Shown here: positions 5,667-57,844 of the stretch, piece after piece
How positions within the stretch are numbered: the stretch's first letter is position 1
Layout: each line of letters begins with the position of its first letter
Source of the DNA: Anaerolineales bacterium
GTDB lineage: Bacteria; Chloroflexota; Anaerolineae; Anaerolineales; UBA11858
Length of the DNA stretch: 64,000 bases
Reading direction: 5' to 3'
NCBI GenBank assembly: GCA_041686005.1
Contig: JAWLER010000007.1
Location: 8,794-72,793 of the forward strand
Position numbers and translations under genes: made by a program
The notes under the pieces: generated by a model
What the model was told of the DNA's origin: nothing
Database searches by the model: none
Seen by the model: only the letters and a program-made list of their open reading frames with translations

Positions 5667-7253
5667 TCAGTTGATTTTTTTATGGTAATCTTCCCAAAAA
5701 GGTGCCCGGAGATCGCGCTTAAGTATTTTACCTGTACCTCCTTTAAGGAAAGCATCCCGGAATTCGACAGTTTTAGGCGCTTTGTAATGGGCTAGGTGAT
5801 GCCGGACAAAATCGATGATCTCTTCTGCTGATGCACTCTTTCCCGGTTTGAGAACCACCAATGCTTTGGGGACCTCGCCCCATTTTTCATCTGGAACGCC
5901 TATGACAACAACCTCAAAGACGGCAGGATGGTTCTGGATGACCTTTTCAACCTCTACGGAGGAGATATTTTCACCACCGGAGATGATGATGTCTTTTTTG
6001 CGGTCCACAATGGTGATGTATCCTTCTTCGTCGACCACTGCCATATCCCCGGTATGAAGCCAGCCATCTCTTATGGTTGCTTCTGTTTCCTCCTGATCTT
6101 TTAAATACCTGTCCATGACCTGGTTACCCCGGACCACGATTTCACCGATCGACTTCTCATCGCGGGGGACGTCATTCCCTTCTTCATCGGTGACTCGTAT
6201 CCGAACACCCACCAGCGGCAAGCCTGTTTTCACCTGGTAAGATCGGCGTGTGGCGGTGTCATGAGTTAGATAAGGTTTGGGTCTGGCGATGACGATAAAC
6301 GGGCAGGTCTCGGTTAACCCATATCCCACATATGCGTGGCAGCCTATTTTCTCTTCGATCCCCTCGATCAAAGCGTAGGGGGAAGGCGCTCCACCGATGA
6401 TCACTTCTCGCAAACTGCTCAGGTCATATTTGTTTAAATCCGGATGATGGATTAAGCCATTGAAGATGGTGGGCACACCCAACAGCTTGGTGATCTTTTC
6501 GGTTTCAATCAACCGAAGCATTTCTCCATAATCTATCTTCCGCATCATGACGTGTTTCCCGCCTACAGCCGTCAGGAACTGGGGTGTGCCCCAGCCGTTG
6601 ACATGAAAGAGGGGCACGACATGCAGGAGATTGTCCTCGTCGCTGATCTGGAATCCGTTGATGGCCGTCAAGGTATGGATATAGAGCGAGCGATTTGTGA
6701 TCGCCACACCCTTTGGATCACCTGTTGTGCCGGAGGTGTAGAAAAGTTCGACAACCGCGTTCTCATCCACCGCATCCAGGTCCACTTCCGCTGTTGGGGA
6801 GGCATCTTCTAAGAGATCTTCGTATTTGTGAGCCCAGGGGAGGGGATCTTCGGATTCCACGATGATGAAATGATGGATGTCGTTCAATTCCCCGCGCATT
6901 TTATCGATGGTGGGATTAAAATCCTTGTGAAAGCACAACACCCGGCTCTCGGCATGGTTGAGAATGTAAGAGATCTCATGATGGGAGAGGCGGATGTTAA
7001 TGGGATTCAGGACAGCTTTGATTTGGGGGACCGCGTAATAGGCTTCCAGGAGTTGGTGGGAATTATAGGTGAGGAAAGAGACCACATCCCCTTCATTAAC
7101 CCCCAACTTGTGGAGGGCATTCGCGAAGCGGTTGACGTGTTGATCGAATTCTTGATAGGTGAAGCGCAGATCCCCATCCACCACCCCTACTTTTTGTCCG
7201 TATAGGGAGGTTGCGCGCTGACGGAATTCCAATGGATTCAAGGGGACGATCAT
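5667..7253 (-). CDS. AMP-forming (long-chain-fatty-acid-type) acyl-CoA ligase
   Basis: YTSGTTGDPKG, YGLTET, GWLHTGD, DRKKDIIISGGENI and TGKILK adenylate-forming motifs. GAGGAGG RBS. Confidence 0.92.
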   Translation of the reverse strand: MIVPLNPLEFRQRATSLYGQKVGVVDGDLRFTYQEFDQHVNRFANALHKLGVNEGDVVSFLTYNSHQLLEAYYAVPQIKAVLNPINIRLSHHEISYILNHAESRVLCFHKDFNPTIDKMRGELNDIHHFIIVESEDPLPWAHKYEDLLEDASPTAEVDLDAVDENAVVELFYTSGTTGDPKGVAITNRSLYIHTLTAINGFQISDEDNLLHVVPLFHVNGWGTPQFLTAVGGKHVMMRKIDYGEMLRLIETEKITKLLGVPTIFNGLIHHPDLNKYDLSSLREVIIGGAPSPYALIEGIEEKIGCHAYVGYGLTETCPFIVIARPKPYLTHDTATRRSYQVKTGLPLVGVRIRVTDEEGNDVPRDEKSIGEIVVRGNQVMDRYLKDQEETEATIRDGWLHTGDMAVVDEEGYITIVDRKKDIIISGGENISSVEVEKVIQNHPAVFEVVVIGVPDEKWGEVPKALVVLKPGKSASAEEIIDFVRHHLAHYKAPKTVEFRDAFLKGGTGKILKRDLRAPFWEDYHKKIN

Positions 7254-7342
7254 CACTTCCTCCTCAAATATATGTCATTAGTATGGGAAAATATACCCAA
7301 AGGGGTTGAAAGTTTTCAATTTTATTTTATATTAATAATAAC

Positions 7343-7360
7343 AGACAGACCAGTCTGTCT
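7343..7360. promoter_or_regulatory. Palindromic operator (probable TetR site) between the divergent ligase and tetR
   Basis: Perfect inverted repeat AGACAGAC-CA-GTCTGTCT just downstream of an AT-rich promoter-like tract. Confidence 0.7.
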
Positions 7361-7380
7361 CAATAGTGGAGGGTGAAATC

Positions 7381-7989
7381 ATGTGTGAGTTAAAAGATAA
7401 TATCATCCACGAGGCGCAAAAATTATTTTCCTTGAATGGGTATTTGAACACCGGTGTGAATGAGATCATCGAGGCCTCTGGAACTTCCAAAGGCGGCTTT
7501 TATAACCATTTTGCGAGCAAAGAGGAATTGTTCTTGGAAGTCCTTACCCAGGCGCAGAAGATATGGCGGGGAAGAGTCTTTCATGGACTTGATGAGATCG
7601 AGAGCCCAACGGAAAAAATCATTCAGATGCTCACAAATTATCGAGATCGCTATATCAAGGACACAGAGAATTTCCCTGGGGGGTGTATTTTCTTGACCTT
7701 TTCTGTGGAGTTGGATGATACCCGACCACATTTAGCAAAAGAGGTGTACAAAGGCTTTGCAGGTTTCAAAGGTTTGTTGAAGGAGCTGTTGGAGGAAGCC
7801 AAAAAGCAAGGCGAAGTATCTAATGATCTGGAACCGGAAGAAGTCTCTGAAATGATATTTGCGGGTATGTTGGGAGCTGCTGTCCAATTTGGGATCGACA
7901 AATCCATTCCTATCCTAAATCGGTCATTTCATTCTTTGATCAAATATATTCAATCATTCAGAGAGAAGCAGTTGTTACGTCAGAAATAG
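7381..7989 (+). CDS. TetR/AcrR family transcriptional regulator
   Basis: HTH ..TGVNEIIEASGTSKGGFYNHFASKEEL and a GGC motif in the C-terminal domain. Confidence 0.93.
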   Translation: MCELKDNIIHEAQKLFSLNGYLNTGVNEIIEASGTSKGGFYNHFASKEELFLEVLTQAQKIWRGRVFHGLDEIESPTEKIIQMLTNYRDRYIKDTENFPGGCIFLTFSVELDDTRPHLAKEVYKGFAGFKGLLKELLEEAKKQGEVSNDLEPEEVSEMIFAGMLGAAVQFGIDKSIPILNRSFHSLIKYIQSFREKQLLRQK

Positions 7990-8151
7990 GAAAAGCCGAA
8001 CCATTCCCTCCAGTGATGTTAAGGGAATCACGGTGTATGGTCATTGGATATTAGATAGGAGGAGGTGATATCTTCAGTTGAAACATAAAACCAAGAACAG
8101 TAAGTTCAATCTAATCTGGCTGTACCAGAATGACAATAAAAGGAGGATGTC

Positions 8152-9858
8152 ATGAGAAGCAAATACTGGAGATGGATCTCCCTTCTAACCATCATCGCGT
8201 TGATCATTCCAGTCTTAGCAGCCTGCCAACCCGCAACACCCACCGAGGTCGAAGAAGAGCCCACAGCGGAACCCACGGAACCTCCCGAACCCACAGAACC
8301 ACCTGAACCCACAGAACCACCTGAACCCACGCCTACACCTGGACCGGTGACCATGCGCGTGGGTACGACGTGGATCTGGGATGGTCTGAACCTGGGGGTG
8401 GAAGCGACCGGGTGGCTTCCCTACCGTTTGATCTTCGATTCCATCGTTGAATTTGGACCCAATGGTTCCTTCATACCAGGGCTGGCGAAAGACTGGTCGG
8501 TGGACGAATCGGGATTGGTTTGGACGTTCAACATCCAAGAAGACGTGACGTTCCATGATGGCACCCCGTGTACGGCGGAAGATATCGCGTGGAGCCTGAC
8601 CTGGATGGAGGAGGTAGGTTTCGACAGCATCGCCTATATGTGGGCGGGTTTATTTGAAGAGGTCAAGGCCTTAGATGAAACGACCCTGCAAATCACTACC
8701 AAATCTCCTGTCAGCTACATGGAATATGTATTGTCCTATTCCTTTGTCGTGCCCAGAAGCGTGTGGGGGGAGATCACGGACAATGAAACCATGGCCAATT
8801 ACACGGAAGAGGATGCGACGATAGGCACCGGTCCCTTCAAGTTTGTGGAATGGGTCCCGGATGAATACCTCATCATGGAGAGAAATGAAGACTATTGGGG
8901 CGAGGTACCTGCTTTCGATGAGTTGATTTTCCAGCAGTATGCCACCGAAGATGCCATGGTCAGCGCTCTCCGGGCTGGGGAAATTGACGGCGTGACGGTT
9001 GTTCCTGCTACCGCTGTGGACACCTTGCAGGGGGAAGAGAATATCAAAGTAAACATTTGGGATGGTTGGGGCGTTCATGAGATGACCATCAACTCTTATG
9101 CAGAGGGAACACAACCGGAAAGTTTGGGTGATCCCATCGTCAGAAAAGCCATGGAATACGCCATTGATCGCGAGAAGATCAATGAGGTGGTTTTCATGGG
9201 CTACAATACACCTGCCACCACTTTTATCGCACCGATCTTGGGGAAGTGGCATAACGACGAGCTCGAGACCATTTCCTTTGACATAGACATGGCCAACCAA
9301 ACCCTAGATGATGCAGGATACACGGATAGTGACGGGGATGGTCTGCGTGAGTGGTCCGACGGCAGCCCCCTGCAGTATCGTTTCTTGATCGATGATACAG
9401 CCCTCAGCGCTCGTCTGGCTGAAGTGGTCGAAAGCGGATTTTCCCAAGCTGGCATTGGTCTTGATATCCAGGCTGTAGACTACAATACCCAGATGACCAA
9501 CGTTTTCTATTACTATGACTATGATCTCACCTACTGGTATTGGGGTGCTGATCCGGATCCAGATTTCTTAGGGACTGTCTTTTCTTGTGATCAGCTCTGG
9601 TGGTGGAATGACTCCGGGTATTGCGATGAAGAATACGACGAAATGTACCAGGCTTCTCGTACCGCGATCGATGAAGAGGAGCGCCAAGGGTACGTATGGC
9701 AGATGCAGGAAAAGATCTACAACGATCGACCCTGGATCGTCCTACTCTACGGTAGTGTGATATCCGCTTATCGAACGGATCGCTTCACGGGCTTCAGCCC
9801 TGATGCGCGCTATATATTCGGTAAGTGGTCCATCCTCCAGGCCGAACCCATCCAGTAA
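8152..9858 (+). CDS. ABC transporter substrate-binding lipoprotein, family 5 (DppA/OppA-like)
   Basis: Lipobox VLAAC, PGLAKDW, VTFHDGTP.TAEDI, IGTGPFKFVEW. AAGGAGG RBS. Confidence 0.92.
   Translation: MRSKYWRWISLLTIIALIIPVLAACQPATPTEVEEEPTAEPTEPPEPTEPPEPTEPPEPTPTPGPVTMRVGTTWIWDGLNLGVEATGWLPYRLIFDSIVEFGPNGSFIPGLAKDWSVDESGLVWTFNIQEDVTFHDGTPCTAEDIAWSLTWMEEVGFDSIAYMWAGLFEEVKALDETTLQITTKSPVSYMEYVLSYSFVVPRSVWGEITDNETMANYTEEDATIGTGPFKFVEWVPDEYLIMERNEDYWGEVPAFDELIFQQYATEDAMVSALRAGEIDGVTVVPATAVDTLQGEENIKVNIWDGWGVHEMTINSYAEGTQPESLGDPIVRKAMEYAIDREKINEVVFMGYNTPATTFIAPILGKWHNDELETISFDIDMANQTLDDAGYTDSDGDGLREWSDGSPLQYRFLIDDTALSARLAEVVESGFSQAGIGLDIQAVDYNTQMTNVFYYYDYDLTYWYWGADPDPDFLGTVFSCDQLWWWNDSGYCDEEYDEMYQASRTAIDEEERQGYVWQMQEKIYNDRPWIVLLYGSVISAYRTDRFTGFSPDARYIFGKWSILQAEPIQ
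8269..8330 (+). repeat. 18-bp tandem repeat encoding an (EPTEPP)n linker
   Basis: GAACCCAC(A/G)GAACC(A/T)CC(C/T), three copies plus a partial copy. Confidence 0.85.
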
Positions 9859-9870
9859 TGTCGTTGAATA

Positions 9871-9909
9871 GGGTCTGATCGGTCAAGGATGCCTTGGCCG
9901 ATCAGATCT
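9871..9909 (+). promoter_or_regulatory. Intercistronic stem-loop after the SBP gene (probable mRNA-stabilising hairpin)
   Basis: GTCTGATCGGTCAAGG-ATG-CCTTGGCCGATCAGAT inverted repeat with no U-tract. Confidence 0.55.
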
Positions 9910-9924
9910 GTCCGGGAGATTCAC

Positions 9925-12054
9925 GTGCAACGTGGCCGATATCTACTAAACAAATTCGTTCTTGCATTTATCACGTTAATAATCATTATCGTTTTTAATT
10001 TCTTCCTGTTCCGGATCCTTCCTGGCGATCCGGCCAGGGCGCTGGTAAAACCGGGGAGGATGAAGCCCGATACGGTGGAGTTGATCAGGGAGCAATTTGG
10101 ATTAGACAAGCCTGTCTGGGTGAATGTCGAAAAACTGAAAGAGGGGGATTTTCGCAGCGGTCTGGACAGTCAATTTTTCGCTTATATTCAGAACTTATCA
10201 CGGGGTAATTTGGGGATTTCTTTTTCAAATCGCTTAGAGGTAAAAGAGATCCTGGCCAACCGGGTCTGGAAAACGGTCTTATTATTATTTTTAGGGCAGC
10301 TTGTATCCATTCTATTGGGCTCCGTTTTAGGGATTATCGCTTCTTGGCGGCGGGGATCGGCGCTCGATGTGGGGATTCTGGGAGGGGGGCTCTTTACCTG
10401 GTCTATCCCCACTTTCTTCTTTGGCATTATCCTCGTGGTCTTGGCTCGAGGTTATCTTCCCACCGGCATGATGGTTACGGTGGGTTTGAAACCGGAAGAC
10501 GGCTGGGTATATTGGAAGGATGTCGGGAAACATTTGATCCTCCCCACCATAACCCTGGGCATTGGTTACATCAGTTCCTACATGATGGTCATGCGCAGCA
10601 GCATCACCGAAGTTTTGAGTGAAGATTATATTCTCTCTGCGAAGGCAAAGGGTCTCAACAGTGTGGAAATATTACGGGATCACGCCCTGAAAAACGCCAT
10701 GCTTCCTATGATCACCCTTATTGCCTTGAATTTAGGCTACACCGTGGGTGGAGGGATCCAGGTGGAAACCGTCTTTTCATGGCCGGGGTTGGGGCGATTG
10801 ATCTTTGATTCCGTGGGCAGACAGGATTACCCAGTCTTACAAGGTGCGTTTTTGCTTTTGGCGGTCAGTGTGATTGGGGCCAACTTCTTGGCTGATTTGA
10901 TTTACTCCTTGCTTGATCCCCGCGTCCGCATGGATAAACCTTCCAGCGCCCGTCAAACCGAAACTGCATCGGTAAGGGTCCAGAGGACCTTTTCAGGTTT
11001 AGGAAATGCTTTGTTAGGTCTTCCTAGAGTCATCCTGAAAAGTGTGCTCGCCATCCCCAAATCATTCACCCGTTTTCTGAGGTGGGGGCGGGAGGCTTTG
11101 AAGAAAGGATGGCAGGGCCTAACGGTTTTTTGGCAAACCCTGAAGCGAAAACCCATGGCCATGCTTGGTGTGGGGATGCTCTTCATCGTAATTTTCGTAG
11201 CTGTATTCGCCCCCTGGATAGCCCCCTTTACGCTGGAGGAATTGGATACTTTGGACGTTAAGGCGGAAGATATCCTGGCCCCACCTGATGCTGAACATAT
11301 TTTGGGGACAGACGACGCTGGGAAAGACGTACTCTCCCAACTGATTTATGGAGCACGGATTTCCCTGATCGTGGGATTTGCGGCGTCCTTCATGTCCTTG
11401 ATTATCGGCACGATTGTGGGTATGATCGCCGGCTACTTTGGCGGCAGAATCGATACCTTTTTCATGCGTTTGGTGGATTTCTTAATGGTCATCCCCACTT
11501 TACCTCTGATGATGATCATCATATCTTTTTGGGGCCGCGGATTGGAAAAGATCATCATCGTCATCGGTCTTCTGTATTGGACCTACATGGCGCGTTTGGT
11601 GCGCTCCCAGGTGATCTCCCTTAAAGAGCGGCCCTATATTTTGCGTGCCAAAGGGATCGGCGCCAGCGATTTCCGGATCATCCTCCGTCATATCTTCCCT
11701 CAAGTGGTTCCGCTGATCATTGCCCAGGGAGTGTTAGATACATCTACGGCGATCATCGCGGAATCCTCTTTGGCGTTCTTAGGATTAGGCGATCCCACCA
11801 TTGTCAGTTGGGGGATGATGCTCAACTTTGCCTTTGCCAGAGCGATCAGCAAGGAAGCTTGGTGGTTCTTGCTGCCCCCGGGATTTGCGATTGTTTGGGT
11901 GAGCTTGGCTCTGGTGTTGATTGGAACTGCGCTGGAAGAGGTTTTCAATCCCCGGCTTAAGACCCACCACCTATTTAACCCGCGTAAGATGGTCTCCCTT
12001 GTGAAGGACACTGAATCCCAGACTCAAGTACTCAAAGCGCCGGAGCGTGTCTGA
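9925..12054 (+). CDS. Fused ABC permease (DppB+DppC domains)
   Basis: DppB motifs (LPGDP, EDYILSAKAKG, ETVFSWPGLG, LDPRVR) followed in the same frame by DppC motifs (HILGTDDAGKD, GARISL, ESSLAFLGLG). Probable GTG start with RBS. Confidence 0.9.
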   Translation: MQRGRYLLNKFVLAFITLIIIIVFNFFLFRILPGDPARALVKPGRMKPDTVELIREQFGLDKPVWVNVEKLKEGDFRSGLDSQFFAYIQNLSRGNLGISFSNRLEVKEILANRVWKTVLLLFLGQLVSILLGSVLGIIASWRRGSALDVGILGGGLFTWSIPTFFFGIILVVLARGYLPTGMMVTVGLKPEDGWVYWKDVGKHLILPTITLGIGYISSYMMVMRSSITEVLSEDYILSAKAKGLNSVEILRDHALKNAMLPMITLIALNLGYTVGGGIQVETVFSWPGLGRLIFDSVGRQDYPVLQGAFLLLAVSVIGANFLADLIYSLLDPRVRMDKPSSARQTETASVRVQRTFSGLGNALLGLPRVILKSVLAIPKSFTRFLRWGREALKKGWQGLTVFWQTLKRKPMAMLGVGMLFIVIFVAVFAPWIAPFTLEELDTLDVKAEDILAPPDAEHILGTDDAGKDVLSQLIYGARISLIVGFAASFMSLIIGTIVGMIAGYFGGRIDTFFMRLVDFLMVIPTLPLMMIIISFWGRGLEKIIIVIGLLYWTYMARLVRSQVISLKERPYILRAKGIGASDFRIILRHIFPQVVPLIIAQGVLDTSTAIIAESSLAFLGLGDPTIVSWGMMLNFAFARAISKEAWWFLLPPGFAIVWVSLALVLIGTALEEVFNPRLKTHHLFNPRKMVSLVKDTESQTQVLKAPERV

Positions 12055-13019
12055 TGACGATGTTGGAAGTCCAAAACCTCTCTGTTTCCTACTTAACCGA
12101 GGATCAAGAAGAACTGAACGCAGTTGAGAATGTCAGCTTCCGCCTTGAAGCAGGGCGTTCCTTGGGCATTGTAGGGGAAAGCGGTTGTGGGAAAACGACC
12201 ACGATCTTAGCCCTCATGCGCTTGCTTCCTGAAGCGGGACGAATAAAGGCTGGCCGGATTCATTTTCATGACAAAGAACTATTACAGATCAGTGAAGCGG
12301 ACATGCGATGTGTGCGCTGGTGTGAAATTTCCATGGTCTTTCAGGGTGCCATGAATTCTCTAAATCCTGTGCGTACCATAGAAAGCCAGATCGTGGAAGC
12401 TTTGCTAAAACATAATCAAGCAGATACGAAGCAACAGGCTCGCCAGCGAACAGCGGATCTTTTGGAAATGGTGGGGATTGCTTCAGAACGGGGGAAGCAA
12501 TATCCACATCAATACAGCGGTGGCATGCGTCAACGGGCTTTTATCGCCATGGCCCTGGCTTGCAATCCGCAGATTTTGATCGCCGATGAACCGACGACAG
12601 CCCTGGACGTCATGATCCAAGCCCAGATTATTCAGCTTCTAAAAAAACTGCAGGAAGAGTTTGATCTCACCTTGATTCTGGTCACCCACGATCTGGGTGT
12701 GGTCGCCGAATTGTGTGATGATGTCCTGGTCATGTATGGTGGGAAGGTGGCTGAGTACGCCAGCAGCGATACGATCTATAACGCTGCAAAACACCCTTAT
12801 ACAAGAAGGTTATTAAGAGCCTTTCCGGATGTCGATCATCTGGATGCGGATCTGGTTTCCATACCCGGTGTTCCGCCGCGCTTGGATGACTTTCCCCTGG
12901 GTTGTCGTTTCAGCCCCCGCTGCCATGTCTGTAAGGATAGATGCAAGCGAGACACACCCCCTTTGGTGGAAATTGAAGATCATCATTATGTAGCCTGCCA
13001 TATGTACAGTCGGAAATGA
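12054..13019 (+). CDS. Peptide/nickel-type ABC transporter ATP-binding protein (DppD-like)
   Basis: Walker A GESGCGKT, SGGMRQR, ADEPTTALD, HPYT and a C-terminal Cys motif. Confidence 0.93.
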   Translation: MTMLEVQNLSVSYLTEDQEELNAVENVSFRLEAGRSLGIVGESGCGKTTTILALMRLLPEAGRIKAGRIHFHDKELLQISEADMRCVRWCEISMVFQGAMNSLNPVRTIESQIVEALLKHNQADTKQQARQRTADLLEMVGIASERGKQYPHQYSGGMRQRAFIAMALACNPQILIADEPTTALDVMIQAQIIQLLKKLQEEFDLTLILVTHDLGVVAELCDDVLVMYGGKVAEYASSDTIYNAAKHPYTRRLLRAFPDVDHLDADLVSIPGVPPRLDDFPLGCRFSPRCHVCKDRCKRDTPPLVEIEDHHYVACHMYSRK

Positions 13020-13032
13020 AAGGGACTCAATT

Positions 13033-14085: not shown

Positions 14086-14160
14086 GATGGAGGGAGGTGG
14101 CGGAGTTTTTTAACAAGGTACGATGGATCACCTTATGTGATGGGATAAAAGGAGTGAGTG

Positions 14161-15621: not shown

Positions 15622-15639
15622 GAACAGTGAGGATGATGT

Positions 15640-17955: not shown

Positions 17956-17970
17956 CAGAGAGTATTGGGT

Positions 17971-18996: not shown

Positions 18997-19018
18997 TGGA
19001 ATGGATGGTTGGAAAATA

Positions 19019-20080: not shown

Positions 20081-20119
20081 AGACGCTTATTGATCAGTTT
20101 GGATAAGAAAGGATGGGTG

Positions 20120-25768: not shown

Positions 25769-26968
25769 ATGAGAGTATCACAGCCAGAAGAAGTGGGTAT
25801 GTCGTCGGAACGATTAAAACGGATAAACGATTTTATGAAATGCTATGTCGATGGCGGGAAAGCTGCGGGTTTTGTGACCCTGGTCGCTCGGGGGGGGAAA
25901 CTCATCTACTTGGATAAATACGGTTATCAGGACCTTGCCACCCAGACCCCCATCGAGCTGGATACGATTTTTCGCATCTATTCGATGACCAAACCGATCA
26001 CCAGCGTGGGTTTTATGAAGTTGTTTGAACGCGGTCTGGTGCGCTTGGAAGACCCGGTGAGCAAGTTTATTCCAGCGTTTAAGGACGTCAAGGTGTACGG
26101 TGAGGAAGGGAAACTGGTGGATCCCATCCGCGAGATCACAGTTCATGATTTGCTGATCCACACGGCAGGTCTCAGTTATGGGGGGATCCAGGAGACGGAA
26201 ATCATCGTCGACGAGTTTTATGACCGGGCGGAGCTGTTCAGCCCGGATATCGATCTGGAAGAGATGGTGCAAAGGATCGCTTCTCTCCCGCTAGCTTACC
26301 AACCGGGCACGGTGTGGCACTACAGCGTATCTATGGATGTTTTAGGACACTTGATCGAAATCATCGCCGATATGGCGTTGCCGGATTATCTGAATGAAAG
26401 CGTGCTTAACCCACTGGGTATGAAGGACACCTCCTTCCAGGTCCCAGCTGAGAAGGCGGATCGTTTTTCTACCCTCTACGGTAAGACGGACGAGAGTGAC
26501 CTCGTTGTCATTCCCGATGAAATTGGGGGGGATTATTTTGACGTCAGCTTATATTTGGGCGGCTCAGGGCTGGTATCCACGATAGCTGATTATTACCGAT
26601 TTGCGCAAATGGTGTATAACCGGGGTGAATTGGACGGTGTCCGTATGTTGAGCCCGAAAACGATGGCATACATGACCGCCAATCACCTCCCCCGTGATCT
26701 GCTGCCCATTTCTATGGGAGAGGTGTGGCCGGGCATGGGCTTTGGTTTGGGATTTAGCGTTGTCTTGGATGTCCCCTTGTCTGGGATGATGGGATCGGTT
26801 GGCCTTCACGGCTGGGGTGGGTGGGCGAAAACACATTTTTGGGTGGATCCCCGAGAGAAGATGATCGGGATTCTGATGATGCAGTTTATCCCCCAGGGGA
26901 CGACCCCTGTGACCAATGATTTTCGGACAGCGGTATATCAAGCGATCTTGGATATGTATGATTCCTGA
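25769..26968 (+). CDS. Beta-lactamase-family serine hydrolase (EstB-like esterase/amidase)
   Basis: FRIYSMTK (SxxK), LLIHTAGL, WHYS, GWGG. No signal peptide. Confidence 0.88.
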   Translation: MRVSQPEEVGMSSERLKRINDFMKCYVDGGKAAGFVTLVARGGKLIYLDKYGYQDLATQTPIELDTIFRIYSMTKPITSVGFMKLFERGLVRLEDPVSKFIPAFKDVKVYGEEGKLVDPIREITVHDLLIHTAGLSYGGIQETEIIVDEFYDRAELFSPDIDLEEMVQRIASLPLAYQPGTVWHYSVSMDVLGHLIEIIADMALPDYLNESVLNPLGMKDTSFQVPAEKADRFSTLYGKTDESDLVVIPDEIGGDYFDVSLYLGGSGLVSTIADYYRFAQMVYNRGELDGVRMLSPKTMAYMTANHLPRDLLPISMGEVWPGMGFGLGFSVVLDVPLSGMMGSVGLHGWGGWAKTHFWVDPREKMIGILMMQFIPQGTTPVTNDFRTAVYQAILDMYDS

Positions 26969-27014
26969 GTAAGCAGGGAAACTACGCTGGTTTTTGATAC
27001 AAAGGAGATTTGTT

Positions 27015-28217
27015 ATGAAGGATGTAGTCATTGTCGATGCAGTGCGAACCCCTGTAGGTAATCATGGAGGAATGTTTCGTGATCTGAATGCGGATGAGTT
27101 GGCTCAGGCCGCGATTGAGGGGCTGCTGGAGCGAACGGAGCTTGATCCATCATCGATTAATGAGGTAATTTTAGGGAACGTGTTCCAATCCAGCGATGCG
27201 CCCAATATCGGCCGGGTGGCTGCCCTGAAGGCGGGTATCCCCATAGAAGTGCCTGCATATACTACAAACCGGAATTGCACATCGAGTATGGATGCTATTG
27301 TGTATGCTTGGCGGAGCATTCAGGTCGGGGACGGGGATATCTATCTCGTGGGCGGGGTGGAATCCATGAGCAACATCCCATATCTGGCGAGAGGAGCGCG
27401 CTGGGGGCTTAGACTCCGCCACGCACAGTTTACGGATTCTTTGTGGGAGGGTTTGACCGATCCGGTTTGCGGGCAGATCATGGGCCGCACAGCAGAGAAC
27501 CTTGCTGAGGAATTTCATATCACCCGCCAGGAACAGGATGAGTTCGCGGTGGGCAGCCATCAGAAGGCATACCATGCCCAGCAAGAGGGGAGATTTGAGG
27601 AGGAGATCGTCCCCGTGGAAATCACCAAAAGGAGGAAGGGGAAAGTTCTCCTGGATCAAGACGAGACCATCAATCCGGATTTGACGGTGGAAAGGGCCAG
27701 CCAGGCGCCAGCGGTCTTCAAAGAAGGGGGTACTGTCACTCCTGCCAATGCCTGTAGTATTTCGGACGGGGCTTGTGCCATGTTGGTCATGAGTGCCGAG
27801 AAAGCGGATGAGTTGGGTTACACTCCATTTGCCCGGATTTTAGGGTACGGTTATGCGGGTGTGGAACCTCACCGGATGGGGATCGCTCCCGTGATTGCTG
27901 TGCCCAGGGCCCTTGAAAAAGCGCAGTTAGATCTGGAAGAAATGGATTTGATCGAACTCAATGAGGCCTTTGCTGCTCAGGTGCTTTCCGTGGGCAAAGA
28001 ACTGGATTGGAATTGGGATATTGTAAACGTAAATGGGGGCGCGATTGCCCTTGGACACCCCGTCGGTTCATCTGGATGTCGGATTGTCGTTACACTTTTG
28101 TATGAGATTCACCGCAGGAAAAAAGAGGGTGATTCAATGAAATATGGATTGGCGACTTTATGTGCGGGAGGTGGACAGGGCAGCGCTTTGGTTGTCGAAA
28201 TTCCTAATGGTAAATAA
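27015..28217 (+). CDS. Acetyl-CoA C-acyltransferase (thiolase)
   Basis: NRNCTSS, GGVESMS, NEAF, GGAIALGHPVG, LCAGGGQG. Confidence 0.95.
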   Translation: MKDVVIVDAVRTPVGNHGGMFRDLNADELAQAAIEGLLERTELDPSSINEVILGNVFQSSDAPNIGRVAALKAGIPIEVPAYTTNRNCTSSMDAIVYAWRSIQVGDGDIYLVGGVESMSNIPYLARGARWGLRLRHAQFTDSLWEGLTDPVCGQIMGRTAENLAEEFHITRQEQDEFAVGSHQKAYHAQQEGRFEEEIVPVEITKRRKGKVLLDQDETINPDLTVERASQAPAVFKEGGTVTPANACSISDGACAMLVMSAEKADELGYTPFARILGYGYAGVEPHRMGIAPVIAVPRALEKAQLDLEEMDLIELNEAFAAQVLSVGKELDWNWDIVNVNGGAIALGHPVGSSGCRIVVTLLYEIHRRKKEGDSMKYGLATLCAGGGQGSALVVEIPNGK

Positions 28218-28292
28218 TCAATATAGACAATGGATTATCAATTTTTGTTCCCATGAGAAACATAAACCCCAATGCTCAGAGGAGGTACCGAG

Positions 28293-29429
28293 ATGATTGA
28301 CTTTACATTTACTGAAGAACAAGAACTGTTCCAAAAAGCCGCCAGAGAGTTCGCAGAGACCGAACTCGCCCCTCATGTTCCGGCCATGGAAGAGAATGAT
28401 GAATACTGGGAGCCGGTGATCGATGCGCTGTGCGAGGCAGAGATGATGGCCATCACCATCCCAGAAGAATACGGAGGCTTGGGATTGGGTTATGTGGAGC
28501 GTTTGATCGCTTTAGAAGAAATCGCCCGCATTTCTTCCGCGACGGCGATGATGATGCAGGTGGGTGGTTTGGGGATCGCACCTATCCTTGTGTTTGGGAA
28601 TGAAGAACAAAAACAGAAATACTTGCCCGGTTTGGCTTCTGGGGAGCATTTTGCCACCGTCGCGGTCACCGAACCATCTGGTGGTTCCAATCCCAAAGAT
28701 TGTTCTACCACCTATGTCAAGGAAGATGGCAAATACATTTTGAATGGTCGAAAATGCTTCATCACCAATGCTCACATCGCGGATGTTCAGGTCGTATTTG
28801 CAGCCGATGCGGATGACCCATCAACCCATTCCACATTTATTGTGGAAAGCGGATGGGAGGGTTTTAAAGCTACTCATATTGAACACAAAGTGGGATGGCG
28901 CGGTTGCAATACCGGGGAGATCGAGTTGAAGGATTGTGAAGTACCCGCTGAAAATCTCTTGGGACCGGAAGGAAAGGGCATGCGCGTGGCGATGACGGTG
29001 ATCAGCGATGTAGGCCGGGGTGGTATGGTGGGCTGCGCCTTAGGCATCCAACAGGCCTGTCTGGACGCATCCATCGAGTTTGCCAAAGAACGTGAACTAT
29101 ACGGTAAGCCGATCAGCTATCTGCAGGCCATCCAGTTCAAGCTGGCCGAGATGAAAATCGACCTGGAAGCTGGGAGACTGCTGGGGTACCGGGCAGCTTC
29201 CATTCAGGATGCTGGGGGCAATGCCGGGAATGAGTTTGCGGTGGCGAAATACTATACCACGGAAGCAGCGCAAAAAGCGGCCAAAATGGCTGTGGATATC
29301 CATGGTGGATACGGCGTCATGCAGGAAGTGGATATTACCCGCCACCTCCGGGACTCATTTGTATTGGGTCCGTCAGCTGGCACTTCGGATATCATGAAGG
29401 TCATCATCGCCCGGTGGGTGCTGTCCTAA
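28293..29429 (+). CDS. Acyl-CoA dehydrogenase
   Basis: IPEEYGGLG, AVTEPSGGS, LNGRKCFITN, QAIQFKLAEM, IHGGYG. Confidence 0.93.
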   Translation: MIDFTFTEEQELFQKAAREFAETELAPHVPAMEENDEYWEPVIDALCEAEMMAITIPEEYGGLGLGYVERLIALEEIARISSATAMMMQVGGLGIAPILVFGNEEQKQKYLPGLASGEHFATVAVTEPSGGSNPKDCSTTYVKEDGKYILNGRKCFITNAHIADVQVVFAADADDPSTHSTFIVESGWEGFKATHIEHKVGWRGCNTGEIELKDCEVPAENLLGPEGKGMRVAMTVISDVGRGGMVGCALGIQQACLDASIEFAKERELYGKPISYLQAIQFKLAEMKIDLEAGRLLGYRAASIQDAGGNAGNEFAVAKYYTTEAAQKAAKMAVDIHGGYGVMQEVDITRHLRDSFVLGPSAGTSDIMKVIIARWVLS

Positions 29430-29513
29430 CGCGTGTCTAAGTAGTTTTTGTGTGGGTAACAGGTCACGATCTGATACCTACTTTTAAGCATATCGGCTAC
29501 TCGAGGATATTGC

Positions 29514-30311
29514 ATGGTTTCTATTGTAGTTTGTGTCAAGGCCGTCCCTGACCCTGAAAAAGCGGACGAAATCAGGATCGATCCGGTCACCAAAGCCCTG
29601 CCCAGGCAGGATGTCCCCTTGGTGATTAATCCCCTGGATCGAAATGCTCTGGAGGCAGCGTTACAGTTTAAAGAAGGGGGGAAAGTGCATATCACTGTGG
29701 TCAGCATGGGACCCCCTCCAGCTGGAAAAGTGGTCAAGGAATGCTTGGCTTTGGGAGCAGATGAGGGGATCCTTTTATCTGATCCCGCCTTTGCAGGGGC
29801 AGATGCCTATGCGACTGCGTTTACGCTTGCCAAGGCCATCCAGAAACTGGATAAGACAGACTGCATCCTCTGTGGGAGGGCGAGCAGCGACGGGGCAACT
29901 GAGTGGGTGGGGCCTGAGTTAGCCACCTTTTTGGGTATACCGGTAGTGACCATGGTCCGCGAATTCGTTGCGACTGGGGATGAGAGATGGAAAGTCAAAG
30001 CTGATCTCGCGGACGGATACCGATTGGTCGAAGTAGAGATGCCGGCTGTATTTACAGTGACCAAGGATCTCAACACACCCCGTACCCTCCGTTATTCAGG
30101 GATCATAAAGGCCAGAAAGAAGGGGATCACCACCTGGGGGTTGGATGAGTTAGACGTGTCCGAGTCCTCCGTGGGATTGAAAGGCTCTCCTACGGTGATG
30201 TCCGATTTGACGTATGTCGAAAGAAAATCCACCTGTCAGTTCATCGAAGGCACATTGGAAGAGAAAGCGGATTTTCTGATCCAGAAGATGATGGAGGTAG
30301 GGGTGTTATGA
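29514..30311 (+). CDS. etfB: Electron transfer flavoprotein beta subunit
   Basis: IVVCVKAVPD, INPLD..ALEAAL, SMGPP, FAGAD..ATA, GLKGSPT. Confidence 0.92.
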   Translation: MVSIVVCVKAVPDPEKADEIRIDPVTKALPRQDVPLVINPLDRNALEAALQFKEGGKVHITVVSMGPPPAGKVVKECLALGADEGILLSDPAFAGADAYATAFTLAKAIQKLDKTDCILCGRASSDGATEWVGPELATFLGIPVVTMVREFVATGDERWKVKADLADGYRLVEVEMPAVFTVTKDLNTPRTLRYSGIIKARKKGITTWGLDELDVSESSVGLKGSPTVMSDLTYVERKSTCQFIEGTLEEKADFLIQKMMEVGVL

Positions 30312-31303
30312 GTCGAGGGTCAACCAACTCCGTCTGGGTCATTGCCGAAGGCATTGGGGGGCGCATCCCCGGGGTCTGTCTTGAGTTAATCGGAAAAGCG
30401 CGAACATTAGGGGACACATTAGGAGGAGAGGTTGGGGTCCTTCTTCTGGGGTATGGGATTCAAGAGCAGGTGGATGAGCTTTTTCATGCAGGTGCGGATG
30501 TGGTTTATCTGGGAGATTCGCCTGTATATGAAAAGTATCAACCCGAGATTTTCACGGAAACAATCGTTCCTTTGTCAAAAGAGGTTCAGCCCCAGATCAT
30601 CTTGCTGGGTTCGACATTCATGGGTAGAGAGCAGGCGCCCCTTATCGCTGCCCGGCTTGGCACGGGGTTAACCGCCCATTGTATCGACCTGATCATCAAT
30701 GAAGAGGGGATTCTGGAGCAAAAGATCCCGGCCTATGGGGGGATGATGACCATCGTCTGCCCGGAAAAACGACCTCAAATGGCGACTGTCACCCAAGGCG
30801 TTTTTCCCATGCCCGATTTGGACATGAGCCGGTCGGGGAAAATCATACCCGTCGAACCGCCGGAAGGGCTTAGGACTCGCGTGGAGACCCTCAAGGTGGT
30901 CAGGAAAAAACCGGAAGGCGTCCCCCTCGAATCCGCGCCGGTGGTGATCGCTGGCGGGGCAGGGGCGGGATGCGCTGAAGGTTGGCAGGAGATTGAAGAT
31001 TTAGCGAAAACGCTGAATGCAGCTGTGGGTTCAACCCGTCCTGCTGTTGACGAGGGGTGGACGGAACTGGAGACCATGATTGGTCAGAGTGGGAAAATGG
31101 TCCATCCTGAATTCTACATCGCGGTCGGGATCTCTGGCGATATGCAGCATATGGTGGGCATCAGTGGGGCGAAAGCCATGGTGGCTGTTAACAACGATCC
31201 CCAAGCCCCGGTTTTCGAACAGGTGGATTACGGTATTGTGGCAGATTGCCGTGAGTTTATCCCCATTTTGTTACGAAAGTTGAGGGAGAAAGGCGATTTG
31301 TAA
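30308..31303 (+). CDS. etfA: Electron transfer flavoprotein alpha subunit
   Basis: GLTAHC, RPQMATV, GSTRPAVDEGW, IGQSGK.V.P..YIAVGISG..QH. Confidence 0.93.
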   Translation: MSRGSTNSVWVIAEGIGGRIPGVCLELIGKARTLGDTLGGEVGVLLLGYGIQEQVDELFHAGADVVYLGDSPVYEKYQPEIFTETIVPLSKEVQPQIILLGSTFMGREQAPLIAARLGTGLTAHCIDLIINEEGILEQKIPAYGGMMTIVCPEKRPQMATVTQGVFPMPDLDMSRSGKIIPVEPPEGLRTRVETLKVVRKKPEGVPLESAPVVIAGGAGAGCAEGWQEIEDLAKTLNAAVGSTRPAVDEGWTELETMIGQSGKMVHPEFYIAVGISGDMQHMVGISGAKAMVAVNNDPQAPVFEQVDYGIVADCREFIPILLRKLREKGDL

Positions 31304-31352
31304 GTGACAGGTTTATAAGATCGTCAATGCCCTTTCTAGTGGAGATATTCCG

Positions 31353-32861
31353 ATGATCGATCTTGAAGAGCGCAAAGCCAGCATCCAACCCATCAAGTCC
31401 AAGTTACAAATCAGTATTCTTGATGACCAGGAAATTAAGCAGATCAATGAGAGCACGCGCGCGGTTTTAGAGGAGATCGGCGTGAAGTTCCCCTCCTCAA
31501 AAGCACTCCAGCTTTTTGCGGATGTGGGCGCGGATGTCGATTTTAAAACCCAGATCGTCAAGATCTCCCCTGATTTGCTTGACACATATCTTGAGACTTC
31601 CCCTCGTTCGTACAAGATGGCGGGGCTGCGCCCTGATCTCGATGTCCCTGTGGGAGAAGGAGAAGGGACATATTTTTACTGCAGCGGTGAGGCGCCCAAA
31701 ATCGTTGATTTTAAGACGGGAAAACGCCGGCTCTCCGTAAAAGAGGATATCGCGAACCATGCCCGCATCGCTGATTATCTTCCGATCGTATCCCTGGTGT
31801 GGCCGTCGGTCAGTGCCAGCGATAAAGATGTGACCTCCCCTCTTCACGGCTTGGAAGCCTGTTACAACAATACGGAGAAACACATCGAGACCGAATCGGT
31901 CATGGATGAAGTTTCAGCTCAATATGCAGTAGATATGGCTACTGTCATCGCTGGGAGCAAAGAGAAGTTGCGTGAACGACCGATTCTATCGCAACTCCTC
32001 TGTGCCATCGCCCCCCTGGCGCATGATAAAGGGGGAATAGAGGCTGCGATGGTCTTTGCTGAGCACGGCATACCGGTTGGCCTGATGTCGATGCCTACCT
32101 TAGGCCTTACAGGCCCGCCAACCGCTGCCGGGTCTTTGACATTGGCCATGGCTGAGGTGCTAAGTGGCATCATGCTCACCCAAATCATTTACCCCGGAGT
32201 GGGAAATTACATCTCCATAAACCCGGGGAGTATGGACCCTCGCACGGGGGAATATTTCATGGCTTCAGGTGTGGTACAGGTCACCAATGTCGCCGGTATC
32301 CAGCTATCACACGCCAACGGCATCCCCGTGCTTGCCTGCCATTCCTTTGGCGGTAGCCAGTATGAATTAGGCAATTGGCAGGCCGGTTATGAAAATTTAT
32401 ATTCTCACTTTTTGGCGGTGATGAGTGGGGCAGATATGTCCTTTGGTCCCAGTGGGATGTATGAAGCGGTCAGCCTGCTTGACCACCCCCGGATTTTATT
32501 TGATCGCGAAATCCTGCGTGTGATCGATGAGATCACGCAGGGGATCGAGGTCAACGAGGAGACGCTTGCTTTTGAGATGATCCGCGAAGTTGGGCATCAA
32601 GGTATTTATGTCTCACGAAAAGAAACGGTGGATTTTTACCGGTCGATGTGGCCTCAGGACTCGATTCTTTATGAAGACGGAAAAGCAGAAGGGCGGAAAT
32701 GGCGCGATCCGGTGGATGTGGCGCGAGAAAGGATCGGCTGGATCCTTGAAAACCATAAACCGGAACCCCTACCTCAGGATGTCAAGGCAGAGGTCAGGAA
32801 AATTGTGGCTGCGGCCGATCGGGATGAAGAGTTGGAAAAAGCAGTCAGAGGAGGGAGATGA
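31353..32861 (+). CDS. Trimethylamine methyltransferase (MttB) superfamily protein, non-pyrrolysine
   Basis: VLEEIGV, G.TGPPT.AG.L....AE.LSG...Q...PG, MDPRTG, GIEVNEETLA...IREVG, H.PEPLP. No in-frame UAG. Confidence 0.88.
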   Translation: MIDLEERKASIQPIKSKLQISILDDQEIKQINESTRAVLEEIGVKFPSSKALQLFADVGADVDFKTQIVKISPDLLDTYLETSPRSYKMAGLRPDLDVPVGEGEGTYFYCSGEAPKIVDFKTGKRRLSVKEDIANHARIADYLPIVSLVWPSVSASDKDVTSPLHGLEACYNNTEKHIETESVMDEVSAQYAVDMATVIAGSKEKLRERPILSQLLCAIAPLAHDKGGIEAAMVFAEHGIPVGLMSMPTLGLTGPPTAAGSLTLAMAEVLSGIMLTQIIYPGVGNYISINPGSMDPRTGEYFMASGVVQVTNVAGIQLSHANGIPVLACHSFGGSQYELGNWQAGYENLYSHFLAVMSGADMSFGPSGMYEAVSLLDHPRILFDREILRVIDEITQGIEVNEETLAFEMIREVGHQGIYVSRKETVDFYRSMWPQDSILYEDGKAEGRKWRDPVDVARERIGWILENHKPEPLPQDVKAEVRKIVAAADRDEELEKAVRGGR

Positions 32862-57825: not shown

Positions 57826-57844
57826 TCCTATTCAAGTTGGGTAC

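Follow-up and report, generated by a model that had tools for sequence, protein, structure and literature searches.

We analysed a 64,000-nt stretch of a metagenome-assembled genome (MAG) of an Anaerolineales bacterium (genome G000, contig C8:8794-72793; hereafter the window), in which 22 genes spanning about 27 kb (5667-32861) form a cluster that combines a TetR-family regulator and an importer with CoA-dependent acyl-processing enzymes, an aconitase X and a methyltransferase of the MttB superfamily. With moderate confidence, we interpret this cluster as one co-inherited, TetR-repressed catabolic set of saline-sediment Chloroflexota (probably Anaerolineae), through which a small, polar organic acid bearing methyl groups would be degraded anaerobically. 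The most probable substrate is a hydroxy or amino acid of the quaternary-ammonium (betaine) type, perhaps arriving as an ester or amide conjugate; such an acid is favoured by the presence of MttB and of enzymes for 3-hydroxy acids, by the omega-type aminotransferase and aldehyde:ferredoxin oxidoreductase (AOR) of the related clusters, and by the saline habitat.

Composition of the cluster

The source genome amounts to 2.65 Mb in 117 contigs and is 87% complete. Only the ligase gene ligA2 is on the minus strand of the cluster; the plus-strand genes are separated by gaps of at most 162 bp, with overlaps in three gene pairs, and the majority of the distinctive genes are single-copy in G000. The genes and families that a first-pass annotation had claimed for 5667-32861 were all confirmed by the open reading frame (ORF) list and by Pfam and NCBIfam searches:

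5667-7256, minus strand: AMP-forming acyl-CoA ligase ligA2 (Pfam AMP-binding and AMP-binding_C; PRK06187, 589 bits against a cut-off of 476)
7343-7360, no strand: candidate TetR operator, a perfect 18-bp palindrome, AGACAGAC-CA-GTCTGTCT, 6 bp 5' of the tetR start
7366-7989, plus strand: TetR-family regulator (Pfam TetR_N and TetR_C_13)
8152-14085, plus strand: Opp/Dpp-type ATP-binding cassette (ABC) importer (Pfam, NCBIfam), comprising a substrate-binding protein (SBP) of the SBP_bac_5 family (8152-9858), a fused OppB/C permease of 721 aa (9889-12054) and two OppD/F ATPases (12054-13019 and 13033-14085)
14158-15621, plus strand: flavo-Fe-S protein of a variant subfamily of the AbfD/HpaB family (Pfam HpaB_N and HpaB, E 3e-77 and 2e-37)
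15640-17181, plus strand: AMP-forming acyl-CoA ligase ligA1 (Pfam, NCBIfam)
17182-17955, plus strand: short-chain dehydrogenase/reductase (SDR), FabG/acetoacetyl-CoA-reductase-like (Pfam, NCBIfam)
17965-18996, plus strand: thiolase-superfamily protein resembling ketoacyl-ACP synthase III (KAS III; PRK06840, 404 bits against a cut-off of 315)
18956-20080, plus strand: alpha/beta-fold serine hydrolase (Pfam Abhydrolase_1/6)
20090-21908, plus strand: two-subunit aconitase X (AcnX; Pfam AcnX and AcnX_swivel_put), with the large subunit at 20090-21427 and the small swivel subunit at 21375-21908
21883-22614, plus strand: QueG-like (reductive dehalogenase-like) Fe-S protein 1, 243 aa (TIGR00276, 35 bits against a cut-off of 200; 40 bits to QueG 5D6S)
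22750-24807, plus strand: ADP-forming (NDP-forming) acyl-CoA synthetase, fused alpha-beta (Pfam CoA_binding_2, Succ_CoA_lig and ATP-grasp_5)
24917-25678, plus strand: QueG-like (reductive dehalogenase-like) Fe-S protein 2, 253 aa (AlphaFold2 model, Foldseek)
25769-26968, plus strand: beta-lactamase-fold serine hydrolase of the family VIII carboxylesterase type (Pfam Beta-lactamase; 335 bits to esterase 7PP3 and 293 to 4IVI)
26994-28217, plus strand: thiolase (thl; Pfam, NCBIfam)
28272-29429, plus strand: acyl-CoA dehydrogenase (ACAD; Pfam, NCBIfam)
29514-30311, plus strand: electron transfer flavoprotein (ETF) subunit EtfB (Pfam, NCBIfam)
30308-31303, plus strand: ETF subunit EtfA (Pfam, NCBIfam)
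31353-32861, plus strand: non-pyrrolysine MttB-superfamily methyltransferase (PF06253, 213 bits against a cut-off of 25)

The cluster was also said to be devoid of a crotonase-family hydratase; indeed, no ECH_1 domain was found in it with Pfam, while two are present elsewhere in the 87%-complete genome. A scan with Rfam revealed no riboswitch or other RNA family within the cluster.

Recurrence of the gene set in the genus and class

The genomes compared are MAGs with completeness of 73-97%. They include 36 other genomes sampled from the genus and a single, even sample of 400 further genomes from across the class, which was searched for four markers, namely the AbfD variant, AcnX, the QueG-like protein and MttB. 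The conserved co-occurrence of these markers, a test set beforehand, was borne out: all four are found in 4 of the 400 genomes, from two other families (G137, G177 and G311 from three genera of one family and G416 from another), and three of the four in G192 from a third family. Taken singly, the markers were recovered as follows: MttB orthologues (E<=1e-150, 61-64% identity) in seven of the 400 genomes, the AbfD variant (74-78%) in six, the AcnX large subunit in seven (five of these at >=59% identity) and the QueG-like protein in eight. MttB occurs without the AbfD variant in G147, G293 and G433, the AbfD variant alone in G376, the QueG-like gene alone in G058 and G102, and a distant AcnX alone in G085 and G185.

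In the four-marker genomes the markers lie on single contigs in shuffled order. The G137 contig displays the order tetR-ligA1-SDR-KAS3-acad-etfB-etfA-abfD-ligase-hydrolase-queG, then a LivK-type ABC system, then AcnXL-aminotransferase-MttB-3HCDH~AcnXS-esterase-Opp ABC (3HCDH, a protein of the 3-hydroxyacyl-CoA dehydrogenase family; the tilde marks a fusion). G177 resembles it, without ligA1-SDR-KAS3, with the ADP-forming synthetase and queG2 after the hydrolase, and with a second Opp-type system. In both of these genomes MttB is lodged between the AcnX subunit genes (AcnX-L, aminotransferase, MttB, 3HCDH, AcnX-S), and the MttB-3HCDH-AcnXS core is also found in G311, G433 and G416. Moreover, two domain fusions cross the borders between modules, one joining 3HCDH to the AcnX swivel subunit and the other EtfA to the AbfD variant. 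Since the same genes recur together in other genomes, their arrangement is more than chance.

Within the genus, 3 of 37 genomes (G000 included) encode the AbfD variant, and a DNA search of 40 relatives yielded multi-gene matches in G016, G022 and G011 only. In the congener G045 (96% complete) the genes are on a 322-kb contig and collinear with the window, in the order ligA2 and, divergent from it, tetR-SBP-permease-atpD-atpF-abfD-SDR-esterase-thl-acad-etfB-etfA-ADPlig-queG-aminotransferase-corrinoid protein-MttB-3HCDH-thiolase2; the identities to the window proteins are 65-81%, save for the esterase (51%). The same phosphodiesterase and sulfatase genes lie upstream in G000 and G045, which points to an island at a single chromosomal locus. 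The window differs from G045 in its additional ligA1, KAS3-hydrolase pair and AcnXLS-queG1, in the relocation of the ADPlig-queG2 pair, and in the absence of the aminotransferase, corrinoid protein, 3HCDH and thiolase2; no orthologue of the relatives' aminotransferase was found anywhere in the G000 genome. Judged by this gene content, the window copy is a rearranged, partly reduced derivative. The other congeners retain fragments: SDR-AcnXL-AcnXS-esterase in G011; tetR-abfD-SDR, ABC-hydrolase-AcnXLS and esterase-thl-acad-etfBA-AOR in G016; and acad-etfBA-AOR-aminotransferase-corrinoid protein-MttB-3HCDH-thiolase in G022. Directly upstream of the SDR, G011 (L008:7059-8952) and G022 (L066:1905-3799) carry DUF169 and URO-D-family genes, which have no orthologue in G000; we take the URO-D family to encompass MtaA-like methyltransferase or decarboxylase functions.

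Probable methyl transfer by a divergent MttB

The earlier designation of MttB as a non-pyrrolysine member of its superfamily holds: the protein of about 500 aa is encoded by a frame with no in-frame stop and displays Phe at the pyrrolysine position of the Methanosarcina-type enzyme 7XCL. Its similarity scores are 170 bits with 7XCL and 157 bits with MtgB. At Tyr97, Arg312, His348 and Phe356, the glycine-betaine contacts of MtgB (PMC13080624, in part), it reads Gly, Leu, Gly and Val, respectively, in a tentative mapping at about 28% identity. The 119 relatives listed for it besides the window's own cluster are all at least 74% identical, and it belongs to a new, abundant clade; the named relatives of both MttB and the QueG-like proteins are from Anaerolineales or Anaerolineaceae MAGs.

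The MttB orthologues of G045 and G022 adjoin an MtgC-like corrinoid protein, and in G137 a corrinoid protein is encoded nearby. Because of this placement next to a corrinoid protein in G045 and G022, we consider methyl transfer part of the gene set. In G000, there are eight B12-binding matches in all, among them six small genes of corrinoid-protein size on other contigs. Of the seven MttB paralogues in G000, that of the window departs furthest from the family model. The other six are on contigs C21, C36 and C71, several of them adjoining small corrinoid proteins, which indicates a methylated-amine-oriented lifestyle.

An aconitase X paired with dehydrogenases

In the AcnX of the window, the large (PF04412) and swivel (PF01989) parts are encoded as two subunits, as in the Type II architecture; its scores are 138 bits with TkAcnX (7CNR) and 92 bits with cis-3-hydroxyproline dehydratase. 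It retains three cysteines matching those of the TkAcnX cluster (Cys110, Cys283 and the Cys342 equivalent) and the counterpart of Glu129, and all four positions are conserved in 12 of 12 aligned sequences. In contrast, at the phosphate contacts of TkAcnX, a mevalonate-5-phosphate dehydratase of Type IIb (Gly48, Val49, Ser50, Asn53 and Asn79; PMC8184944, in part), it has Val, Ile, Pro, Tyr and Asp, with the Asp present in all 12 sequences. Against the equivalog model for hydroxyproline dehydratase (NF051439) it attains 147 bits, the cut-off being 700. Subclasses Type IIc-f are stated to have unknown function (Watanabe et al., PMC8184944, in part), and the window's AcnX probably belongs to one of these uncharacterised subclasses.

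Its contextual associations are with oxidoreductases. In G011 the SDR (an 81% orthologue) is immediately upstream of AcnX-L, in G137 the fusion of 3HCDH to the AcnX swivel is a single ORF of 474 aa, and in Cyclobacteriaceae the AcnX homologues occur in the order AraC-3HCDH-permease-AcnX-serine hydrolase. In Firmicutes, Dojkabacteria and Anaeroplasma (L013, L034, L036, L044, L028), an AcnX pair with subunits 36-43% identical to the window's adjoins an old yellow enzyme (OYE)-type enoate reductase (Oxidored_FMN+Pyr_redox_2), and at L050:11278-14028 (plus strand) an AcnX swivel domain is fused to an enoate-reductase-type enzyme; this pairing suggests an undescribed hydroxy-acid dehydratase/enoate reductase couple. 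The simplest common reading of these contexts is that AcnX would be a (de)hydratase of free acids, acting between 2-enoates and 3-hydroxy acids. For the 3HCDH of the relatives, the NCBIfam models gave no distinction between CoA-ester and free-acid dehydrogenases. A search of genome contigs with AcnX-L retrieved 46 loci, among which only L008 (the contig G011:C79) has more genes of the cluster; the remaining loci have only the two AcnX subunits in common with it.

A probably ETF-linked variant of AbfD

The AbfD-family protein scores 305 bits to Clostridium aminobutyricum AbfD (1U8V) and 284 bits to the archaeal 4-hydroxybutyryl-CoA dehydratase (4HBD; 6VJR). We take the [4Fe-4S] ligands of AbfD to be Cys99, Cys103, Cys299 and His292 and its catalytic residues to be Tyr296, Glu257, Glu455 and Lys300. 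The variant retains the equivalents of the three cysteines, with a C-x4-C spacing, and has Tyr for His292, Ile for Tyr296, Val for Lys300 and Gln for Glu257, while the Glu455 position is deleted. Five orthologues from two families share the motif NYRACIGACV without change, and all of them have Tyr at the His292 position. A search of 1.84 billion representatives recovered just three full-length close relatives (55%, 54% and 45% identical), followed by full-length proteins at 35-37% that are presumably ordinary AbfD-like proteins. One of the three (P0243) is a fusion to EtfA, and among 120 listed relatives of P0243, 106 have ETF_alpha and 102 have both ETF domains.

In G137 and G177, abfD is directly 3' of etfA. 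This adjacency and the EtfA fusions point to an ETF-linked redox enzyme, and the AbfD variant thus probably has a redox role instead of hydro-lyase chemistry. That it is a dehydratase appears unlikely, given that the residues we take to be catalytic are replaced and that the subfamily is fused to or adjoins EtfA. Accordingly, the earlier suggestion that either AcnX or the AbfD homologue supplies the missing (de)hydration step fares differently for its two halves: it gains from the pairing and fusion of AcnX with dehydrogenases and loses ground for AbfD.

The fusions of EtfA to AbfD-like domains are about 820 aa long, widespread in metagenomes and annotated only as 4-hydroxybutyryl-CoA dehydratase or HpaB-like; the named ones are mainly from Acidobacteria/Vicinamibacteria and Elusimicrobia, with single records from Eisenbacteria and Bacteroidales. 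They look like an uncharacterised enzyme family of their own. In G177 (C41:24227-25684), the genome search marks one TAG inside the AbfD-variant match; since the ORF call ends at 24230, the alignment has probably run past the terminal stop, and the TAG would not be a recoded codon.

Truncated QueG-like proteins

The two QueG-like proteins are paralogues with 50% identity and both score 33-35 bits with TIGR00276, far from its cut-off. An AlphaFold2 model of the second (mean pLDDT 74, moderate) retrieved QueG first in Foldseek searches (E 2e-8, probability 1.0, TM ~0.5), followed by PceA, NpRdhA and MMACHC. Eight cysteines, making up two 4Fe-4S sets, are invariant in 34 QueG-like sequences, and the family of the second protein has 2506 relatives at E<=1e-10. 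The proteins are thus predicted to comprise a truncated cobalamin/Fe-S core with two 4Fe-4S sites and without the tRNA-binding domain. A metagenome scan with the first protein found just two loci, one of them a 41% relative without other cluster genes. In G016, a DUF2284 gene is 5' of the QueG-like gene.

Regulation, uptake and acyl-CoA metabolism

Orthologues of the TetR regulator (59-68% identical) are found in G045, G016, G011, G022, G137 and G177. The palindrome ahead of tetR is the sole site in the window when up to three mismatches are allowed (0.14 expected) and is adjoined by promoter-like hexamers in the tetR/ligA2 spacer. The palindrome recurs with at most two changes (consensus AGAC(A/C)GAC-N2-GTC(T/G)GTCT), again adjoined by promoter-like hexamers, just 5' of tetR in all seven genomes examined; in G137 and G177 a further copy lies between tetR and the first catabolic gene. 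This conserved operator supports the TetR control proposed in the first-pass annotation: by binding the palindrome, TetR would control the first promoter. Consensus scans for promoters and terminators gave counts close to those expected from shuffled sequence (14 vs 18.1 expected, 31 vs 20.4, 14 vs 10.1 and 13 vs 11.0) and were left out of the definition of transcripts, for which only the hexamers of the tetR/ligA2 spacer were noted.

Four salt-lake RNA libraries, produced in two studies, include contigs that are 100% identical to dispersed parts of the cluster; some of these contigs span the thl/acad and acad/etfB junctions. These matches weakly support its expression, and parts lacking such contigs (e.g., 26269-27570) were not counted as silent. 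Near-identical DNA is present in sequencing runs labelled as sediment, freshwater-sediment and hypersaline-lake metagenomes.

The importer has orthologues in G045 and G016 (74-79% identical) as well as in G137, G177 and G311 (56-71%). Its SBP scores no higher than 127 bits with any solved SBP, the matches being binders of nickel, dipeptides and opines, from which no ligand can be deduced.

Of the two AMP-forming ligases, which are 34% identical to each other, ligA2 has orthologues (76-78% identical) in G045, G011 and G022 that are likewise transcribed away from tetR; in G016, only a 39-residue piece of it (77% identical) adjoins tetR, at a contig edge. ligA1 has a 68% orthologue in G137, again arranged as ligA1-SDR-KAS3; it is missing from G045 and survives in G016 as a 60-residue remnant alone. 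Orthologues of the SDR are found in G011, G016, G022, G045 and G137. The catalytic triad of KAS III (FabH) is Cys-His-Asn; in the KAS-III-like protein the Cys is aligned, and Ile and His apparently stand in place of the His and Asn, in alignments of 20-25% identity. This protein has a 73% orthologue in G137. A biosynthetic role built on KAS III, the ligases and the SDR was considered and rejected, as no gap in the cluster fits an acyl carrier protein (ACP) gene and the importer, ETF and thiolase are present.

The alpha/beta hydrolase has orthologues (63-66%) in G016, G137 and G177, and the family VIII esterase (46-64%) in every related cluster. In G045 and G177, the orthologue of the ADP-forming synthetase (72-79%) has a QueG-like gene after it. 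The synthetase may conserve ATP; its closest NCBIfam models also include the acid-activating 3-hydroxypropionate and 4-hydroxybutyrate ligases. The order acad-etfB-etfA is collinear in G016, G045, G137 and G177, as well as in G022, where acad is cut at the contig end, and thl is 5' of these genes in G016 and G045. An AOR gene follows etfA in G022 (L065:6350-8083) and G016 (L055:2-940); the best AOR match in G000 is 61% identical and lies on another contig, C61.

A proposed route and its alternatives

We propose the following route for the breakdown of a methylated acid by this gene set. TetR would bind the palindrome ahead of its own gene, and the Opp-type ABC system would take up the compound, from which the family VIII esterase and the alpha/beta hydrolase may release the acid. 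MttB would then hand one methyl group to a corrinoid protein, which in G000 would act in trans. AcnX and a dehydrogenase (the SDR in the window, the 3HCDH fused to the AcnX small subunit in G137) would form a hydratase/dehydrogenase pair on the free acid, in place of the missing crotonase. The two AMP-ligases would form CoA thioesters, the ACAD and the AbfD variant might both operate with EtfAB, and the thiolase, perhaps along with the KAS-III-like protein, would cleave to acetyl-CoA. The ADP-forming synthetase would yield ATP or activate an acid, and the two truncated QueG-like cobalamin/Fe-S proteins would carry out a reductive step.

Several observations weigh against this interpretation. 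There is no corrinoid-protein gene in the window, and the best corrinoid protein of G000 is just 44-45% identical to the partner of MttB in G022. The gene content varies: among the full clusters (G000, G045, G137 and G177), AcnX is missing in G045, the aminotransferase and 3HCDH in the window, the ADP-forming ligase in G137, the SDR in G177 and the thiolase in both G137 and G177, while G147 and G293 have MttB-3HCDH without the AbfD variant or AcnX. In the other family (G137, G177, G311) the genes are split into sub-operons, two or three in number, that have separate ABC importers. Together, this variable content and the separate sub-operons imply that more than one substrate may be served, and related substrates may be handled by exchangeable modules. 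Importers of the SBP_bac_5 type are typical for peptides, metallophores and opines rather than betaines, and none of the results points to one specific substrate. Further, the residue mappings of MttB and the KAS-III-like protein are from alignments of about 25-30% identity, the RNA-library contigs may include carried-over DNA and are no proof of transcription, and the co-occurrence counts are descriptive and overstate the number of independent events, the MAGs of kin not being independent. Thus, of the pathway for an N-methylated acyl compound suggested in the first-pass annotation, the supported parts are one co-inherited set inclusive of methyl transfer, the TetR control and the idea of AcnX in place of a crotonase, while the window copy itself is short of the corrinoid protein, aminotransferase and 3HCDH; the acylcarnitines, betaine lipids and hydroxyproline betaine named there as substrates are guesses.

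We consider the alternatives in descending order of probability. The first, a specific version of the methylated-acid interpretation that we deem unlikely, is a carnitine/gamma-butyrobetaine-type pathway. Here, acylcarnitines would be de-esterified, MttB would demethylate carnitine or gamma-butyrobetaine, AcnX would interconvert carnitine and crotonobetaine as free acids, the 3HCDH or SDR would be a carnitine-type dehydrogenase, a ligase and ACAD/ETF would act on crotonobetainyl-CoA, and the ETF-linked AbfD variant would remove or process the C4 substituent. The two esterases of the cluster fit this, as does the existence of MttB-superfamily enzymes for carnitine and gamma-butyrobetaine (MtcB and MtyB; PMC8604678, in part). 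The elimination of trimethylamine from C4 of gamma-butyrobetainyl-CoA by an ACAD-fold flavoenzyme has been likened by its authors to 4-hydroxybutyryl-CoA dehydration (PMC8364193, in part), and a CaiB-family CoA-transferase gene follows the G045 cluster. Carnitine dehydrogenases belong to the 3HCDH family, and their models give 154 and 120 bits on the G045 enzyme; however, these are well short of the respective cut-offs of 592 and 414, and the NCBIfam models for CaiC (269 vs 651), CaiA (201 vs 540) and CaiB (161 vs 413) are also far below theirs. In addition, the importer is not of the betaine/carnitine type, and the aminotransferase of the relatives would have no role unless the amine were fully demethylated.

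The second alternative, which also has a low probability, is that adjacent operons of separate function merely travel together, one importing peptides and another fermenting short-chain acyl-CoAs, joined by a stray methyltransferase. The variable content, the sub-operons with separate importers in G137 and G177 and the MttB-3HCDH pairs standing alone in G147 and G293 are in line with this, as are the single operator in the window and the chance-level promoter and terminator scans. Against it, the four markers are together in 4 of 400 genomes although each is present in just 6-8, MttB sits between the AcnX subunit genes, the two domain fusions cross the module borders, and the genes stay together through repeated reshuffling.

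Slightly lower still we place the catabolism of peptides, modified amino acids (e.g., hydroxyproline/proline betaine derivatives or N-methylated ornithine- or lysine-containing conjugates) or N-acyl amino acids, with the CoA enzymes fermenting the carbon skeleton or acyl chain. This would explain the Opp/Dpp-type importer and finds further support in the cis-3-hydroxyproline dehydratases among the relatives of AcnX, the proline-racemase-family gene that adjoins the corrinoid protein at the G137 cluster, the OSBS/NSAR-type enolase-superfamily and Amidohydro_3 genes inside the G311, G016 and G416 clusters and the best match of the aminotransferase to acetylornithine/GABA aminotransferase models. 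Yet AcnX falls far below the cut-off of the hydroxyproline dehydratase model, the accessory genes are absent in the window and G045, and the cluster has no peptidase.

Finally, an ordinary fermentation of gamma-aminobutyrate (GABA) or 4-hydroxybutyrate as in Clostridium aminobutyricum (aminotransferase, alcohol dehydrogenase, CoA activation, dehydration by AbfD to crotonyl-CoA, then butyrate and acetate) is very improbable: it would draw on the AbfD-family protein with its score to 1U8V, the relatives' GABA-type aminotransferase and 3HCDH, the Fe-dependent alcohol dehydrogenase gene adjoining the cluster (see below) and the ACAD/EtfAB, thiolase and ADP-forming synthetase, but the presumed catalytic residues (His292, Tyr296, Glu257, Glu455 and Lys300) have all been substituted or lost, without variation among five orthologues, the variant subfamily is fused to EtfA, the aminotransferase is missing from the window, and MttB, AcnX, the QueG-like proteins and the esterases would be left unexplained.

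Flanking genes and other features

The cluster is bordered on its 3' side by a further gene:

32909-34177, minus strand: Fe-dependent alcohol dehydrogenase (Pfam Fe-ADH), convergent with MttB; 79 bits to the 4-hydroxybutyrate dehydrogenase model

No orthologue of this gene was seen in the related clusters, and its membership in the gene set is doubtful. On the other side, sulfotransferase, type I phosphodiesterase and sulfatase genes (566-5642, minus strand) are 3' of ligA2, with a gap of 24 bp between ligA2 and the sulfatase gene. At the equivalent place, G045 has ORFs of equal lengths (611 and 508 aa) in the same strand and order as the phosphodiesterase/sulfatase region of the window; in G011, DUF3179 and DUF547 genes follow ligA2 in their place. 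Two T-box leaders, at 40490-40824 and 57602-57829 (both minus strand; 101 and 99.5 bits, above the Rfam gathering threshold), are upstream of a PALP-family gene (39125-40522) and of an ORF at 55763-57568, respectively. At 0.47-0.53, the GC content of the cluster is below that downstream (0.55-0.58) but equals that of the upstream flank, and it was not used as evidence for horizontal transfer.

Relation to described systems and implications

The nearest described systems (MttB demethylation, cai/fix, bbu, AbfD-based GABA fermentation, AcnX Types I/IIb and QueG) each fail at least one tested defining feature. With the MttB demethylation systems (MtgB, MtpB, MtcB, MtyB and that for choline in Eubacterium limosum) the gene set shares PF06253, the non-pyrrolysine state and, in G045 and G022, the corrinoid partner. 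In contrast to these, the window MttB scores only 157-170 bits to solved members, has none of the four MtgB glycine-betaine contacts and is embedded in a CoA-dependent catabolic cluster with no corrinoid gene in the window. To our knowledge, the described MttB-superfamily systems stop at the demethylated product. The cai/fix system of Escherichia coli and the bbu (gbu) system of Emergencia timonensis likewise combine a CoA ligase, an ACAD-fold flavoenzyme and ETF for a C4 acid with a charged substituent, and BbuA provides a precedent for C4 elimination by an ACAD-fold enzyme (PMC8364193, in part). However, the cluster is without a CaiD crotonase, a BbuA homologue or a BCCT transporter, its FixA/B scores are 95-111 bits against cut-offs of 219-549, and it adds AcnX, the QueG-like proteins, MttB and the esterases.

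The enzymes themselves show similar partial likenesses. The AbfD variant shares the HpaB_N/HpaB fold and the three Fe-S cysteines with 1U8V and 6VJR, and differs in the presumed catalytic residues and the EtfA fusion. AcnX shares the two-subunit Type II architecture, the three TkAcnX cysteines and Glu129 with known types, and departs from them in the phosphate contacts and the dehydrogenase/enoate-reductase context. With QueG and the reductive dehalogenases the QueG-like proteins share the predicted cobalamin-plus-ferredoxin core and the eight cysteines for two 4Fe-4S clusters; at 243-253 aa, as against about 370-384 aa in QueG, they lack the C-terminal domain, and they occur in a catabolic cluster, often after the ADP-forming synthetase. 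A search of the literature outside subscription journals and supplements found no description of this gene combination. We rate as known here a regulated anaerobic catabolic cluster with corrinoid methyl transfer, and as new the several enzymes of new subfamilies.

A more far-reaching possibility, to which we assign a low probability, is an undescribed anaerobic route that degrades a quaternary-ammonium osmolyte or its ester completely, beyond demethylation, by means of three unprecedented catalysts. As parts of this joint reading, the ETF-coupled AbfD-fold enzyme would perform redox chemistry at C4 of an ammonio- or amino-acyl-CoA (e.g., C-N cleavage), the AcnX/dehydrogenase pair would catalyse a hydration and oxidation akin to beta-oxidation on the free zwitterionic acid, and the truncated QueG-type cobalamin enzymes would reduce a small molecule instead of tRNA. 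If this were true, the route would be a widespread sink for carbon and nitrogen in anoxic saline sediments, given the abundance of both the MttB clade and the QueG-like family among sediment metagenomes.

The anaerobic use of methylated osmolytes has so far mainly been seen as simple demethylation or the release of trimethylamine. If the breakdown of a methylated acid by this gene set is correct, the coupling of MttB to a full CoA-dependent degradation would represent a new fate for abundant methylated osmolytes in saline sediments and would also give the uncultured Anaerolineae a role. Whatever the substrate, the cluster provides a testable context for the EtfA-linked AbfD-like subfamily that is widespread in Acidobacteria and Elusimicrobia, the AcnX Type II clade, the short QueG-like cobalamin/Fe-S proteins and the MttB clade.

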